Both the position numbers and the translations under genes were made by a program. A stretch of 36,764 bases of DNA from contig JAUSKZ010000001.1 of assembly GCA_030646805.1 (NCBI GenBank), positions 1-36,764 of the forward strand, in the 5' to 3' direction. Under the pieces are notes generated by a model. The model searched no databases. It was not told the origin of the DNA and worked only from the letters and a program-made list of their open reading frames with translations. The DNA is from Candidatus Daviesbacteria bacterium (lineage in GTDB: Bacteria > Patescibacteriota > Microgenomatia > Daviesbacterales > UBA10151). Positions 12,216 through 16,638 of the stretch are shown here, piece after piece. The first letter of the stretch is position 1; the number at the start of each line of letters is the position of its first letter.

Positions 12216-13537
12216 TTCAAAGAGGAAAGCCTGATATCAACCCTTTCCATATCCCGGGGAAAAAGCGAAGCCTCCCGAACGTTGGACAACCCTAAAATAT
12301 GCATCACAATTCTTTCCGATCCAAATGAAAATCCACCCTCAGGGGGCATACCATATTTAAAGGCTTGCAAATAAAGCTCGCTTTTCTTAATGTCTACTCC
12401 CCGCGCGCTGGCTTTCTCAGTTAAAAGTTTGACGTCATTAATTCTTTGTCCGCCAGTCATCCACTCAGTCCCTCGGCCCAATAAATCAAAGCTTAAAGTA
12501 TAGCCTGGATCAGACTCGTCTTCGAAGGTATAAAAGGGGCGTTTGGAAACTGGATAGTGAGTGATAAAAATTAAGTCTGATTCTTTTTCTTCTAAAGCCC
12601 ATCTACAAATTTCCCGCTCGTCTTCCGGTTCTAAATCCGGCTCTTTCCTATTATCCCTGCCGGTTCTTTTAAAGATTATTTCTTGAGCTTCTCTTAACTT
12701 AATATGGGGAATTGTCTCTGGAACTTTTGGAATAGAGGTATTATATGAAGTTAATATCGGACTTGTCTCTTTCTCCACCCGCTCTAAAATATATTTTATA
12801 GAGTACTCTGCCATCTCCATCACATCTAACCAACTATCGATAAATCCAAACTCGGCGTCCAATGTTGTGGCTTCAGTTAAGTGGCGGGTTGTCACCGAGG
12901 GTTCGGCTCTTAAGGTTTTATTGACCGTAAACACTCTCTCAAAAACCCCCACCATAATCTGTTTGTAAAATTGTGGGCTTTGGGCCAAATATGCTTTATG
13001 TTCAAAGTATTTAATCTCAAAAACCTCTGAACCGCCTTCGGCTGCTTGGGGGATAATTACCGGTGATTGAAACTCAGTAAAATCTTTTTTCTTTAAAGAT
13101 TCCCGGAAAGCATCTATCACCACTTCCTGGACTTTAAAAATCTCCTTAATTTTAGGGTGCCTTAAAGTTAAGCCTCTAAAATCTAAAAGGGTGGGGAGTT
13201 GTAAATCTAACTCTTTCCCTCCCATATCAAAAGGTAACTCTTCAGCCTTTGATACAATTTCTATTTTTTCGGCTTGAAGTTCCACCTTACCGGTGGGTAA
13301 ATTTGGATTAATTAACTTCGGAGGCCTAGAGGCAACCTTGCCTTCTACACAAACTACGTCCTGTGGTCCTAAATCTTTAACCTGTTCACCACTGCAAACA
13401 ACTTGCAAAACTCCGCTTCGATCTAAAATATCCAAGAAAGCGATCTTGCCGTGATCACGTCTAGTTTGAACCCATCCACAAATCTTGACCGACTCGTTTA
13501 CTTTATCATTACAATCTAAAACCAAAGTTCTCTGCAT
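12212..13537 (-). CDS. aspS: aspartate--tRNA ligase, short archaeal-type (probably non-discriminating)
   Basis: OB-fold GWVQTRRDHG, LAQSPQFYKQ, motif 2 RAE...RHLTE, motif 3 GMPPEGGFSFGSER; no GAD insert. ATG at 13537 preferred to TTG at 13543. Confidence 0.88.
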   Translation of the reverse strand: MQRTLVLDCNDKVNESVKICGWVQTRRDHGKIAFLDILDRSGVLQVVCSGEQVKDLGPQDVVCVEGKVASRPPKLINPNLPTGKVELQAEKIEIVSKAEELPFDMGGKELDLQLPTLLDFRGLTLRHPKIKEIFKVQEVVIDAFRESLKKKDFTEFQSPVIIPQAAEGGSEVFEIKYFEHKAYLAQSPQFYKQIMVGVFERVFTVNKTLRAEPSVTTRHLTEATTLDAEFGFIDSWLDVMEMAEYSIKYILERVEKETSPILTSYNTSIPKVPETIPHIKLREAQEIIFKRTGRDNRKEPDLEPEDEREICRWALEEKESDLIFITHYPVSKRPFYTFEDESDPGYTLSFDLLGRGTEWMTGGQRINDVKLLTEKASARGVDIKKSELYLQAFKYGMPPEGGFSFGSERIVMHILGLSNVREASLFPRDMERVDIRLSSLK

Positions 13538-13575
13538 GCCCAAATCATAACAACTAACTTTAGCCTTGACAATAC

Positions 13576-13797
13576 TTATTCACCTTTTCGCTTATTGACT
13601 AAAAGATCGCAGATTTGTCTGGGATCTTGCCTAATTAGATCCAGTAACTCTTGAAAAGATTTTAATATCTGACCTTGGTCGCTCTGGACATGACGATGCG
13701 CTTTACCCATTACGATGTTTGAAGATAATTCTTGAGTTCTTTGTTTAACAACGTCAGGGCCAAGAACTCCTTGTTCAACTCTAGTTTCAACTACCAT
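13576..13797 (-). CDS. hypothetical protein (73 aa) downstream of aromatic attenuator
   Basis: Strong SD AAAGGAGGTGA upstream of ATG at 13797; no recognised motif. Confidence 0.7.
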   Translation of the reverse strand: MVVETRVEQGVLGPDVVKQRTQELSSNIVMGKAHRHVQSDQGQILKSFQELLDLIRQDPRQICDLLVNKRKGE

Positions 13798-13834
13798 AAT
13801 TATCACCTCCTTTCTTTTTATTTAAAAAATCCAC

Positions 13835-13858
13835 AAAAAAACCTCCCGTTAGGGAGGC
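13835..13858 (-). terminator. intrinsic terminator of aromatic-amino-acid attenuator
   Basis: minus strand GCCTCCC-TAAC-GGGAGGT followed by a T run. Confidence 0.85.
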
Positions 13859-13889
13859 ATATTGGTTTTTAAATTGTGTCTATTTTTAT

Positions 13890-13964
13890 TTAGACACTAA
13901 CCAACCGCCTCCCGAGAGAGGTAAACCAAAAGAAATAACAACTTTTGGTAGATTGGCTTAACAT
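13890..13964 (-). CDS. attenuator leader peptide MLSQSTKSCYFFWFTSLGRRLVSV (24 aa)
   Basis: Five consecutive aromatic codons, followed by alternative 1:2, 2:3 and 3:4 pairings; promoter directly upstream. Confidence 0.75.
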   Translation of the reverse strand: MLSQSTKSCYFFWFTSLGRRLVSV

Positions 13965-13971
13965 TAGAGTG

Positions 13972-14001
13972 ATCTTATCAAAAAGATCTTTTTATTGTCA
14001 A
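13972..14001 (-). promoter_or_regulatory. sigma70 promoter for aromatic leader
   Basis: TTGACA (14001-13996), 18 nt, TAAGAT (13977-13972) with extended TG; ATG 7 nt downstream. Confidence 0.7.
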
Positions 14002-14246
14002 TAATAAAAAGGCAGATTTAGGTATTCCGGATCTAGAACTCTGTTGGGTCCAATCCACAAACCCTTAACTTTTTCAACCATTGAGCGCCTGTTTCCAACT
14101 ACTAACCTAACTCTTTCTCCGGCTGTATCAAAAATAACGCGCCTGGCTTCCGGATCAATCCGCAGTTCACCTAGAGCTGTAAAGACTTTAATGTTTCTAC
14201 AATCTCTAAATCTTTCAATTTTTCTTCCACTCTTTATTTCTATCAT
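13998..14246 (-). CDS. hypothetical basic protein (82 aa)
   Basis: SD AGGAGGT before ATG at 14246; own promoter; the ORF-track TTG start coincides with the -35 box. Confidence 0.65.
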   Translation of the reverse strand: MIEIKSGRKIERFRDCRNIKVFTALGELRIDPEARRVIFDTAGERVRLVVGNRRSMVEKVKGLWIGPNRVLDPEYLNLPFYY

Positions 14247-14268
14247 CTTAGTTACCTCCTTTTTAAAG

Positions 14269-14297
14269 ATTCTACTCATCTTTAATCTCCCTGTCAA
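14269..14297 (-). promoter_or_regulatory. sigma70 promoter
   Basis: TTGACA (14297-14292), 17 nt, TAGAAT (14274-14269). Confidence 0.7.
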
Positions 14298-14340
14298 TGA
14301 AGCTCCACGGTTTTACGACCGTAGTTTCTTCTCAGCTTCA
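14297..14340 (+). repeat. degenerate left-end copy of the hairpin element found in the PIN gene
   Basis: ATGAAGCTCC-ACGGTT-TTAC-GACCGT-AGTTTCTTCT versus ATGAAGCTCCC-GCGGGC-TTAC-GCCCGG-GGTATCTTCT at 30302. Confidence 0.6.
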
Positions 14341-14363
14341 CAGCTTTAGCTGATAAATTATTC

Positions 14364-14392
14364 TTGACAAGAAAATACTACAACATTATAAT
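14364..14392 (+). promoter_or_regulatory. consensus sigma70 promoter for Leu/Val leader
   Basis: TTGACA (14364-14369), 17 nt, TATAAT (14387-14392). Confidence 0.85.
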
Positions 14393-14401
14393 TACTTCTT
14401 A

Positions 14402-14497
14402 ATGAACTTGAACTTTACAAAAAGCTTTAATGTCCTAGTTAGCCTTCTGAACGAGGTGCTTCTTAGCGCACCTATCAAAGGAGGCCTTTTTAGGTAA
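14402..14497 (+). CDS. attenuator leader peptide MNLNFTKSFNVLVSLLNEVLLSAPIKGGLFR (31 aa)
   Basis: 7 Leu and 3 Val, clustered in VLVSLLNEVLL; starts 9 nt after the -10 box; overlaps the antiterminator arm. Confidence 0.7.
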   Translation: MNLNFTKSFNVLVSLLNEVLLSAPIKGGLFR

Positions 14498-14521
14498 GAC
14501 TACCTAAAAAAGAAGTTGCAG

Positions 14522-14547
14522 GCCTCCTTAACAGGAGGCTTTTTTTT
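14522..14547 (+). terminator. intrinsic terminator of Leu/Val attenuator
   Basis: GCCTCCT-TAAC-AGGAGGC followed by T8. Confidence 0.88.
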
Positions 14548-14576
14548 GGGAAAAATGTAATAAATTTAAAACAAAT

Positions 14577-14828
14577 ATGAGCGCAGAAAAAGTTAATGAA
14601 TTAAATTTAGAGTCTCAGGTGGTTGATAAAAATACTCAACTGAAATTTTGCCATCAGGCTGGCAGTGAATATGAAAGACTATTAGTGGAGTGTATGGGTG
14701 ATCCGCGGTCTGTTGCCAACAGGTTTGCCTTCCGCAAGTCCGGATCCAGAGCTGAAAGAGGTTATGTTCCAACCTTTGACTCGAGAGAAGCGTTTGACTG
14801 GAATCCGAAAAGGAGAATGGATGGCTGA
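14577..14828 (+). CDS. hypothetical protein (83 aa) downstream of Leu/Val attenuator
   Basis: ATG 30 nt after the terminator; no motif recognised. Confidence 0.55.
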   Translation: MSAEKVNELNLESQVVDKNTQLKFCHQAGSEYERLLVECMGDPRSVANRFAFRKSGSRAERGYVPTFDSREAFDWNPKRRMDG

Positions 14829-15060
14829 AAAATTTCTGGAAAGAAAAATGTTCGGTAACGGCGTAGCCATACCCAAAGAACCAACTCCCCACGGAAACGA
14901 CTGGCAGTATGTCGGTTTTATTGGTGCGGGAAGACTTGAAAATAATTATATCTACACTGGCAACGATCCATTAATTTTATCTATCCCTGAACAACAGTTT
15001 GGGATTCCAAAGAAGGACGAAAAATTAATTGATGTTAATATCCAAAACTTTAAGTTGTAA
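14821..15060 (+). CDS. hypothetical protein (79 aa)
   Basis: ATG at 14821 preceded by AAGGAG and overlapping the upstream stop; 3' end overlaps the recJ end. Confidence 0.5.
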   Translation: MAEKFLERKMFGNGVAIPKEPTPHGNDWQYVGFIGAGRLENNYIYTGNDPLILSIPEQQFGIPKKDEKLIDVNIQNFKL

Positions 15061-16638
15061 GTTTTCTGAGCCGTTAAATTTATTTATCTCCAAAAAGTAG
15101 GCAATATCTACTACCCCCCGTTCTAAAACTTGTGACTCTAAACTACCTTTGGAGAAAGCGATGGCATCAACTCCTTCAGCTTTGAACTTAAGGTGTTGTC
15201 CATTACTTAAAGTTCGGCAATCACTTATTTTGACTTTTTTTGACCCGAAAATAGGGATGGGGTTTCCTTGACCGAAAGGCTCCAATTTCTCAAGAGTTTT
15301 TACCCAATTTTTATCAACTTTGGATAAATCTAATATCGCCTCAACTTTAAGTCCATTTTCTTTTTCTTCTATTAAAATACCTCCCATCACCTCATCCAAC
15401 TTCTTTTTAAACTCCTCTAATTTCTTTGTCTCTAGAGAAAACCCAGCTGCCTGAGGGTGACCACCTATATCTACCAAAAGATCCGCACAAATTCGCAAAG
15501 TTTCGACAATATTTAATCCATTAACTGACCTGGCTGAACCCTTACTTATAGTTTCACCTTCAGAGATAATAATCGTTGAAACTTTATACTCTTCAGCGAT
15601 CCTACCGGCGACTAATCCAATCACTCCCGGAATCCAATTAGGTGAATGAAGGAGTAAAATCTTCTTGCCAGTTAAATCCCCGCTTTGTAAGACTTGTCCC
15701 TTAGCTTCAGTGATCGCCTCAAGGGTATATTTTTTCTTCAAATCGTTGCTCTCACACAAGTGTCTTGCTAGGCTGATTGCTTTGACCGGATCTTTAGTAC
15801 AAAGCAGTCTTAAGGCCTCGATAGAATCCTCGAGTCTACCGACGGCGTTAATCCGAGGACCTAAAATCCGCCCGACATCTGAAGAGCTAATCTCACCTAA
15901 ATCCAAGGCGCACTCTCTCATTAAAGCTAAAAATCCCAACTTCTCTGTCCGGTTTAAAACCTTAAGCCCCGCTTGTACTAGAGGTCTATTGAGATTGGTT
16001 AAAGAAATTAAATCACAAATTGTTCCTACCGCTACCAAATCCAAAAACTCTTCAGAGTCTTTTTCTCCTAGCAACTCCCGGCTTAAACACCAAGCAACAG
16101 CTGAACCTGACATTTGAGTGGAATGAATTATTGATAACGCTTCAGGTAAAGCCTCCCTCGGCAGATGGTGGTCGGTAATAATTAAATCTATTCCTATTTT
16201 TTTGGCATATTTGGCCTGGTCCAAAGCCACGATTCCGTTATCAACGGTAATTACCAATTTAGCCCCCTTTTCCAAAGCCTTATCTAACCCAAATTCTGAT
16301 AACCCGTATCCTTCTTTTTCCCGGTGGGGGAGATACGGCAAAACCTTAGCCTTGAGTTTAGCCAAAGCTAAATACAGTATGGCGGTTCCACAAACTCCAT
16401 CGGCGTCATAATCACCATAGATAATAATTTGCTCATCCTCGCTTATAGCCTGTTTAATTCTTTCAACCGCCACTTTTATCCCGGCGAGTAATAAATCTTT
16501 TGAATAATTTTCAAGCTTTGGATTTAAAAATTCCTCCCGGTCTTCTTCTTTTATTTCTCGGTTGATAAGCAGCTGGTTTAATAAATCATCAGGGGAAAGA
16601 ATCGCGTTTTTAAAAGAAGGGGAGATTTGCCATTTCAT
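15025..16638 (-). CDS. recJ: single-stranded-DNA-specific exonuclease RecJ
   Basis: GDYDADG, EGYGL, TVDNG, TDHH, PRINAVGR, GGHPQAAG, LEPFGQGNP. Confidence 0.96.
   Translation of the reverse strand: MKWQISPSFKNAILSPDDLLNQLLINREIKEEDREEFLNPKLENYSKDLLLAGIKVAVERIKQAISEDEQIIIYGDYDADGVCGTAILYLALAKLKAKVLPYLPHREKEGYGLSEFGLDKALEKGAKLVITVDNGIVALDQAKYAKKIGIDLIITDHHLPREALPEALSIIHSTQMSGSAVAWCLSRELLGEKDSEEFLDLVAVGTICDLISLTNLNRPLVQAGLKVLNRTEKLGFLALMRECALDLGEISSSDVGRILGPRINAVGRLEDSIEALRLLCTKDPVKAISLARHLCESNDLKKKYTLEAITEAKGQVLQSGDLTGKKILLLHSPNWIPGVIGLVAGRIAEEYKVSTIIISEGETISKGSARSVNGLNIVETLRICADLLVDIGGHPQAAGFSLETKKLEEFKKKLDEVMGGILIEEKENGLKVEAILDLSKVDKNWVKTLEKLEPFGQGNPIPIFGSKKVKISDCRTLSNGQHLKFKAEGVDAIAFSKGSLESQVLERGVVDIAYFLEINKFNGSENLQLKVLDININ

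Follow-up and report, generated by a model that had tools for sequence, protein, structure and literature searches.

The DNA analysed here (the window) is a 36,764-nucleotide stretch of contig JAUSKZ010000001.1 from a Candidatus Daviesbacteria bacterium, whose genome assembly comprises 685 kb in 49 contigs and is 90.4% complete. A leader element on its plus strand (14364–14560) is probably a ribosome-mediated (leader-peptide) attenuator of leucine (Leu) type, located upstream of two orphan genes, orfA and orfB. This reading is carried by the sequence features of the element, its conservation, the covariation of its helices, and the correlation between codon type and downstream enzyme in its paralogues. 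The mechanism is of a known kind; the attenuator family itself, which belongs to tiny-genome Microgenomates and here stands over two orphan genes, is in our judgement likely to be one that has not been catalogued before.

In the mechanism that we infer, a strong promoter would start the mRNA at, or a few bases from, the ATG of a 31-codon leader open reading frame (uORF), which would be translated as a leaderless or nearly leaderless cistron. By default, segment 1 (14442–14448) would pair with segment 2 (14478–14487) during emergence of the RNA, and segment 3 (14520–14529) would then pair with segment 4 (14533–14541). The GC-rich 3:4 hairpin with its U8 would terminate transcription and bury the AGGAGG of the next start codon. 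A ribosome that reaches the stop codon (14495) would occupy segment 2, and the outcome would be termination, too. If charged tRNA-Leu ran short, the ribosome would stall on Leu codon 12, 15, 16, 20, or 21, leaving segment 1 covered and segment 2 free. Free segment 2 would form a 10-bp helix with segment 3, the terminator would be prevented, and RNA polymerase would continue. Read-through would leave segment 4 free as the ribosome-binding site for a mini-ORF, orfA, and orfB.

Layout and predicted folding of the leader

The original prediction described a perfect TTGACA-17-TATAAT promoter, a 31-residue uORF containing VLVSLLNEVLL, and a segment 1 (GCCTTCT) that pairs with AGGAGGC and encloses an AGGTGC/GCACCT hairpin (hp1). 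All of these are present (Table 1). The proposed antiterminator is a perfect 10-bp complement of AAGGAGGCCT and AGGCCTCCTT that encloses a second hairpin (hp2), and sequence and folding agree on it. The terminator, which had been placed at 14522–14547, is recovered by a terminator scan as a 9-pair stem followed by T8. Five of the nine pairs are G–C, and the stem is predicted to terminate transcription in vivo. As would be expected of an attenuator, the promoter is separated from the downstream genes by a short putative leader ORF. Its stop codon starts 8 nt past the end of segment 2, a position from which a terminating ribosome would mask that segment. The hairpin hp1 is possibly a pause hairpin.

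The minimum free energy (MFE) of the 152-nt transcript is −52.3 kcal/mol, compared with −36.3 ± 3.7 kcal/mol for 200 dinucleotide shuffles, none of which is as stable (z = −4.4). The 1:2 helix (with hp1), the 2:3 helix (with hp2), and the 3:4 helix of the window have energies of −21.6, −25.3, and −13.9 kcal/mol, respectively. The terminator and antiterminator states of the whole leader, at −47.7 and −49.3 kcal/mol, are nearly isoenergetic. If positions 14432–14462 are masked, as they would be by a ribosome with Leu15 or Leu16 in the A site, the leader folds into the 2:3 helix and lacks the terminator. If positions 14481–14510 are masked instead, as by a ribosome that has reached the stop codon, the 3:4 terminator forms. 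The helix energies and masked folds, together with covariation for 1:2, hp1, hp2, and 3:4 (see below), bear out the complete 1:2, 2:3, 3:4 logic that had been proposed. Three features described below go beyond the original prediction: a uORF that is presumably leaderless or nearly so, a segment 4 that doubles as the ribosome-binding site for the next cistron, and a second copy on the opposite strand.

Segment 4 also has the sequence of a Shine–Dalgarno element (SD) for the next cistron. Among 69 homologous copies, the segment 4 pattern parsed 61 (seven rows are unparsed and one mirror-strand row was dropped). A start codon follows soon after segment 4 in 60 of the 61, and in 53 it lies at 6–7 nt, at the end of the U-tract. 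The start codon belongs to the regulated gene itself in 30 copies. In 13 it opens a mini-ORF of about four codons (often MEKI) with a stop that overlaps the following ATG, and in 17 it opens a mini-ORF followed by a gap. The spacer between segment 4 and the start codon is a pure run of 6–8 T in nearly all copies. With the SD in one arm of the terminator, the terminator hairpin would also mask the ribosome-binding site.

This arrangement raises the alternative of a purely translational switch, in which 3:4 hides the ribosome-binding site without terminating and the stalled ribosome frees segment 4. The position of the start codon 6–7 nt downstream is consistent with it, the alternative-helix logic would serve SD sequestration equally, and terminator-like sites are not enriched in a 10-kb scan (12, compared with 10.0 ± 3.1 expected). 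However, a spacer of 6–8 T is needed by an intrinsic terminator and not by SD spacing, which argues that termination has been selected as well, and the stem is GC-rich with nine pairs and a 4-nt loop. We therefore regard a switch that acts on translation only as unlikely. Termination and SD masking are compatible, and we think that both operate.

Table 1. Positions of the leader element, the downstream genes, and the second copy in the window (R1 is the covariance model described in the text; hyphens within sequences separate stem arms and loop)
Feature	Position	Strand	Remarks
Promoter, TTGACA, 17-nt spacer, TATAAT	14364–14369, 14387–14392	+	12/12 consensus; sole perfect match in a 10-kb scan
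Leader ORF, MNLNFTKSFNVLVSLLNEVLLSAPIKGGLFR	ATG 14402 to TAA 14495–14497	+	31 aa, with VLVSLLNEVLL; no SD
Segment 1 (A), GCCTTCT	14442–14448	+	in codons Ser14-Leu15-Leu16; pairs with segment 2
hp1, AGGTGC/GCACCT	14454–14459, 14468–14473	+	enclosed by 1:2; −9.6 kcal/mol
Segment 2 (B), AAGGAGGCCT	14478–14487	+	codons Lys26-Gly-Gly-Leu29; partner is segment 1 or 3
hp2	14488–14509	+	enclosed by 2:3; uORF stop (TAA 14495–14497) in 5′ arm; −8.3 kcal/mol
Segment 3 (C), AGGCCTCCTT	14520–14529	+	partner is segment 2 (antiterminator, 10 bp) or segment 4 (terminator)
Segment 4 (D), AGGAGGCTT and T8	14533–14547	+	terminator 3′ arm; SD-like AGGAGG for start codon 14546
Predicted intrinsic terminator	14520–14541; T8 14540–14547	+	9-pair stem, 4-nt loop; terminator scan
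Mini-ORF, TTG GGA AAA ATG TAA	14546–14560	+	at end of U-tract; stop TAA 14558–14560
orfA	14577–14828	+	83 aa, orphan; no Pfam or NCBIfam match; no SD of its own
orfB	14821–15060	+	79 aa, orphan; SD AAGGAG 14810–14815; start overlaps orfA stop
Second attenuator copy, aromatic type	13831–14001	−	R1 match 13940–13831, 36.6 bits, E = 4e-5
Second-copy promoter, TTGACA, 18-nt spacer, TAAGAT	14001–13996, 13977–13972	−	
Second-copy uORF, MLSQSTKSCYFFWFTSLGRRLVSV	ATG 13964 to TAA 13892–13890	−	ATG 7 nt past −10 box
Second-copy terminator, GCCTCCC-TAAC-GGGAGGT and T-run	stem 13858–13841	−	terminator scan

Conservation, covariation, and codon content in the family

By aspartyl-tRNA synthetase (AspRS), the closest named matches are records of Candidatus Daviesbacteria, Microgenomates, and Patescibacteria, with identities of up to 78–79%. 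A DNA search of 60 relatives returns matches of about 75 nt to positions 14480–14556 of the window, in genomes of the same family. The 11 matching loci that were inspected share one layout: a consensus-like promoter, an ATG a few bases past the −10 box, an ORF of 25–42 codons, segments A (GCCUCCUU-like), B (GGGAGGUC), C (GACCUCCC), and D (GGGAGGU with a U-run), and the two inner hairpins. A covariance model (R1) was built from 11 homologous sequences with the terminator-state structure. R1 matches 92 of the 96 family genomes at E ≤ 0.01, including 75 of the 77 high-quality ones, and 88 of the 96 at E ≤ 0.001; the order-level search covers the same 96 genomes. The element of the window scores 97 bits, mid-range among orthologues. 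Across the family, the element is syntenic between aspS and recJ and vertically inherited, and many relatives carry two to seven copies, often consecutive on one contig. Matches at E ≤ 0.001 also occur in 42 of 143 genomes from other families of the class; these are weaker (30–53 bits), and six of seven that were inspected have a hydrophobic uORF, mostly Leu-rich.

To quantify covariation, the 69 copies were aligned to R1 (alignment A3) and pairs were counted for the terminator-state structure. Paired cells amount to 92.5%, compared with 82.0 ± 0.4% in shuffled alignments, double-sided changes occur in 26 of 30 pairs, and the covariation score is 0.320, compared with 0.160 when shuffled and 0.04–0.11 when the partners are slid. 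The A:B helix is paired in 87.7% of cells over the 69 homologues, with double changes in all seven pairs. Compensatory changes are found in all six pairs of hp1 despite its position in the coding sequence; in some copies hp1 is wholly replaced (for example, by GGGTAAT/ATTACCC or TCCTCC/GGAGGA), though it lies inside the ORF. In the 2:3 (B:C) helix, 88.7% of cells can pair, compared with 43–59% when slid. Judging from these alignments, the RNA structure is under selection.

After removal of one mirror-strand row, 68 copies remain, and the uORF is found in 67 of them, L147 being the exception; it starts with ATG and ends just past segment B. A promoter match of at least 9/12 ends no more than 25 nt before the ATG in 49 of the 67. 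Between the −10 box and the ATG there are most often 7 nt; the distance is 6–12 nt in 40 of those 49 and 9 nt in the window. An SD-like motif precedes the uORF in only three of the 67, whereas neighbouring ordinary genes have GGAGG-type SDs. The short ORFs are thus presumably leaderless, or nearly so.

Leu accounts for 7 of the 31 residues of the uORF in the window (23%), compared with 21–39% in orthologous uORFs and 12% in the ORFs of at least 200 aa in the window. Leu codons 12, 15, 16, 20, and 21 fall at 14435–14464, over segment 1 and hp1. When the 67 uORFs are typed crudely by whichever residue makes up the largest fraction, 44 come out as Leu, 14 as Ile, and 9 as aromatic; that of the window is in the Leu class. 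The original prediction had spoken of a Leu/Val-rich attenuator and had pointed to asparagine (Asn) as frequent, too. Leu is supported by the class assignment and the Leu content; Asn is not, as the four Asn residues are not conserved among orthologues. Leu is therefore likely the sensed residue in this genome.

The paralogues bear on specificity. Eight multi-copy regions of relatives were read for uORFs and downstream genes with Pfam and NCBIfam, the Pfam scan covering downstream ORFs of at least 100 aa. In all 12 copies that precede an identified biosynthetic enzyme, the enriched residue of the uORF fits the pathway, and the scaffold is common to all. Phe-rich uORFs (KFFYFFFAF, NFNFFFTF) precede genes with PDT and ACT domains, scored as prephenate dehydratase above the NCBIfam cut-off (L053, L056), and aromatic uORFs (KWFFAYFAF, KFFYTYFWF) precede DAHP_synth_1 genes (L054, L049). 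Ile-rich uORFs (EIIEIIITS, IAIIIN, IIIGIIITS) precede HMGL-like genes in L053, L059, L026, and L022, of which that in L053 is a citramalate synthase (TIGR00977, 459 bits; cut-off 450). Ile-rich or Ile/Val/Leu uORFs precede the acetolactate synthase large subunit in L054, L055, and L060 (in L060, TIGR00118, 695 bits; cut-off 538). Finally, a Leu-rich uORF containing NLLGLLLLALLLGAFL precedes an HMGL-like gene of 416 aa (L057, 2183–3433), whose top NCBIfam model is 2-isopropylmalate synthase at 470 bits, below the cut-off. The check that the original prediction had called for, a search for the same leader ahead of ilv/leu genes in other taxa, thus comes out positive for acetolactate synthase, citramalate synthase, and isopropylmalate-synthase-like genes.

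The isopropylmalate-synthase-like gene of L057 is short and lacks the LeuA_dimer allosteric domain, which is present in the citramalate-synthase-like paralogues. At L053–L060, in the aspS–recJ interval, first-committed-step enzymes are strung in one locus, each with its own leader: acetolactate synthase, citramalate synthase, isopropylmalate-synthase-like protein, prephenate dehydratase, and DAHP synthase. A leader with a Tyr run (MGKLINKYYYYNNF) stands ahead of a 323-aa protein with no family match (L059, 11231–12315). A conserved protein of 263–266 aa with no Pfam or NCBIfam match is encoded behind Phe-type or aromatic-type leaders (L058, 3141–3929; L141, 1846–2643), and is a candidate for an aromatic-amino-acid-linked enzyme or transporter not yet recognised.

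The tracking of downstream enzyme by codon type bears on another alternative, which the original prediction had already raised: that the locus instead yields a stand-alone small RNA or a transcript for a type I toxin-like peptide. Such a unit would be expected to look much like this one in some respects, with about 150 nt from promoter to terminator, strong structure, and a partly hydrophobic peptide, and there are weak sub-threshold matches to Rfam small-RNA families, which come mostly from the terminator hairpin. In addition to the codon–enzyme relation, however, the locus keeps its syntenic place between aspS and recJ and has been inherited vertically. Neither an antisense partner nor a repeat was seen, and no antisense promoter–terminator unit was noticed in the promoter and terminator scan. 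Rfam 15 gives no gathering-score match in the window, nor in 50 kb of eight relatives' loci that hold about 30 copies. We find a toxin or small RNA hardly credible. The sub-threshold Rfam candidates (Phe_leader, nse_sRNA, PyrR, and others) were rejected, as they align chiefly to the terminator hairpin, and a tRNA/tmRNA scan found none.

If the peptide were the product, the hairpins would be merely the 3′ end of its gene and the downstream ORFs would be independent. A peptide of 31–34 aa could be a small single-pass membrane protein: the Leu-type peptides of relatives have a hydrophobic stretch of about 20 residues after a charged N-terminus, MSKxxxxDLKRxE, this motif is kept with some synonymous changes, and the promoter is very strong. 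However, the raw ratio of nonsynonymous to synonymous polymorphism (pN/pS) in 21 same-register Leu-type uORFs is about 0.7 in both halves (0.70 for codons 2–13 and 0.69 for codons 14–24). The stop codon lies at two modal offsets past segment B among homologues, 8 nt (TAA, peptide end GGLFR) and 4 nt (TAG, peptide end GRSF). Two different frames thus encode the C-terminus over one conserved nucleotide sequence, suggesting that the constraint is on the RNA rather than the peptide. The copy in the window has lost both the N-terminal motif and the unbroken hydrophobic stretch, whereas its RNA helices are all intact. The Ile or Phe runs of the paralogues, at 6–8 residues, are too short for a membrane span, yet the same scaffold is present with cognate enzymes behind it, and the SD of the next cistron is segment 4. 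A membrane peptide as the sole product is very improbable, although the element may have a dual peptide and RNA role in relatives.

Several observations weigh against a Leu-responsive attenuator at this locus. Among sequencing runs searched for positions 13500–15100, no RNA run is listed as containing the locus, and the one DNA run that does may be the source sample. The MFE structure of the full-length transcript is the antiterminator form (2:3 with a 1:4 closing helix), so termination would depend on co-transcriptional kinetics. Covariation of the 2:3 helix is low, because both of its arms are nearly invariant. Alignment A3 is fitted to the R1 structure, which favours that structure, and its sequences are related; the matches outside the family may in part represent the terminator hairpin alone. 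The Leu run of the window is thinner than those of relatives and is interrupted by Asn, Glu, Ser, and Pro. With the ATG 9 nt past the −10 box, a 5′ untranslated region of 2–3 nt is likely, and the uORF would not be strictly leaderless. The orfA ATG (14577) lies 17 nt past the stop of the mini-ORF and has no SD of its own, indicating that the coupling seen in relatives is degraded in the window. In addition, the downstream genes of the window have no known tie to leucine; a pathway gene follows the leader in the 12 paralogous copies of relatives and not here.

Genes behind the Leu-type leaders

The original prediction had noted that the downstream genes are two orphan ORFs, and this holds: neither has a Pfam or NCBIfam match. 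Homologues of orfA occur in 3 of 95 other family genomes, two of which (G093 and G119) have it directly behind a Leu-type leader. A word-indexed protein search with orfA finds its own protein alone, and the Atlas gives no match of at least 0.9 and a model with a pLDDT of 0.39. For orfB, the search of the family genomes returns one borderline and unconvincing match (E = 0.0099), and the Atlas gives nothing usable. A motif family (FGNG) shared by orfB and the second ORF of G119 was considered and withdrawn (BLASTP E = 7.8). orfB and the convergent recJ overlap by 36 nt at their 3′ ends (15025–15060), and read-through from the leader would consequently be antisense to the end of recJ.

Four enzyme families that are preceded by leaders in relatives (HMGL-like, TPP_enzyme_C, PDT, and DAHP_synth_1) were not found in the 90.4%-complete genome of the window, and controls for these searches were positive in 14, 14, 14, and 11 of 14 genomes, respectively. 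The four families are likely absent from this genome. This absence, the thinner Leu run, and the degraded junction between mini-ORF and orfA would fit a relic in a reduced genome, with no regulation left and the element serving as a leaky constitutive terminator, an insulator, or a promoter for orfA and orfB. However, the element has kept all its helices, a perfect promoter, and an open uORF that stops at the canonical place, and its score of 97 bits is mid-range among orthologues. Moreover, Leu-type leaders without an HMGL-like gene are the family norm: HMGL-like genes are found in 21 of the 96 family genomes, compared with 92 for the element. The link with non-biosynthetic genes is therefore maintained rather than accidental, and a relic appears quite unlikely.

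In most relatives, the ORFs behind the Leu-type leader are small and varied and have no Pfam match. The leader of G029, and judging by coordinates that of G089, stands directly ahead of a Rel/SpoT-family gene (HD_4 and RelA_SpoT). We hypothesize that the Leu-type leader reports amino-acid supply generally. It is conceivable, though short of probable, that in these amino-acid-auxotrophic members of the candidate phyla radiation (CPR) this leader is a general starvation sensor, reading tRNA-Leu charging through a leaderless uORF, rather than a regulator of biosynthesis. It would induce fast-evolving small orphan proteins and, in one genus, a Rel/SpoT (p)ppGpp enzyme. Re-coding of the modular scaffold would have produced at least four specificities (Leu, Ile, Phe/aromatic, and Tyr), with one hairpin acting as both terminator and SD mask.

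In G029 (L045; contig C3, 9654–12778), the Rel/SpoT-family gene begins 5 nt past the U-tract, and the corresponding locus of G089 lies on contig C15 at about 53.9–55.2 kb. A rel gene is present in only 14 of the 96 family genomes, often near the leader locus, and G000 has none. Three of the four family genomes without an R1 match at E ≤ 0.01 have rel (G002, G033, and G078); two of these three are less than 90% complete, and the coincidence of rel with a missing leader may be due to chance.

Comparison with known systems and a second copy on the minus strand

Leader-peptide attenuators of enterobacteria control leu, ilvGMEDA, ilvBN, pheA, trp, his, and thr, and are represented in Rfam by families such as Leu_leader and Phe_leader. 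The present element resembles them in having a short ORF enriched in codons for the end product, mutually exclusive 1:2, 2:3, and 3:4 helices of which 3:4 is the terminator, a stop codon placed so that the ribosome would cover segment 2, and codon runs that differ by operon. It differs from them in several respects. There is no similarity in sequence or structure model, the top Rfam match being Phe_leader at 29.9 bits (gathering score 55). The uORFs here have no SD and start 0–5 nt from the predicted transcript start. One scaffold of SD-like and anti-SD-like GGAGG/CCUCC segments serves all specificities, the next cistron takes its SD from segment 4 and its spacer from the U-tract, and the Leu-type leader stands, here and in most family members, ahead of orphan small ORFs and not of leu.

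In translational attenuation of ermC and cat, an antibiotic is sensed through the nascent peptide, and the stalled ribosome exposes a sequestered SD. The mechanism proposed here is similar in that a stall on the leader ORF would remodel the RNA and open a sequestered SD, but it involves runs of amino-acid codons and a canonical terminator U-tract.

In mycobacteria, leaderless polycysteine short ORFs are reported to be cysteine-responsive attenuators (bioRxiv 10.1101/834739). They share with the present element a leaderless short first cistron and a run of codons for one residue that makes the operon amino-acid-responsive, and differ in phylum, amino acid, and the lack of a shared scaffold. A full-text search of one literature collection returned no paper joining leader-peptide attenuation with Patescibacteria, or transcription attenuation with the candidate phyla radiation. 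The papers listed there for Microgenomates and leader peptides concern other topics, judging by their titles and the openings of their abstracts.

Gene regulation in Patescibacteria (CPR) is poorly understood. The family described here is a sequence-defined, widely conserved, predicted cis-regulatory RNA, which can be used for RNA family libraries and regulon annotation. Its Leu-codon switch persists even in genomes in which no member of the HMGL-like (isopropylmalate/citramalate synthase) family was found, and in one genus it lies directly ahead of rel. It opens the way to testing how ultra-small symbiotic bacteria sense amino-acid supply. The compact layout, with a leaderless uORF, a terminator arm as SD, and a U-tract as spacer, is of interest for synthetic regulators as well.

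The window contains a second, diverged copy of the element on the minus strand, of aromatic type (Table 1). Its promoter overlaps the stop codon of an 82-aa gene at 14246–13998. Its uORF stops within the 5′ arm of a hairpin that has a different sequence (GTGTCTA/TAGACAC). Behind this copy are a GGAGGTG SD, a 73-aa ORF (13797–13576), and then aspS. The 73-aa ORF gives no alignment with the start of the ORF behind the orthologous leader in L030. A divergent pair of Leu-type and aromatic-type leaders is also present in L030, in L049, where the aromatic one is ahead of DAHP synthase, and in L141.

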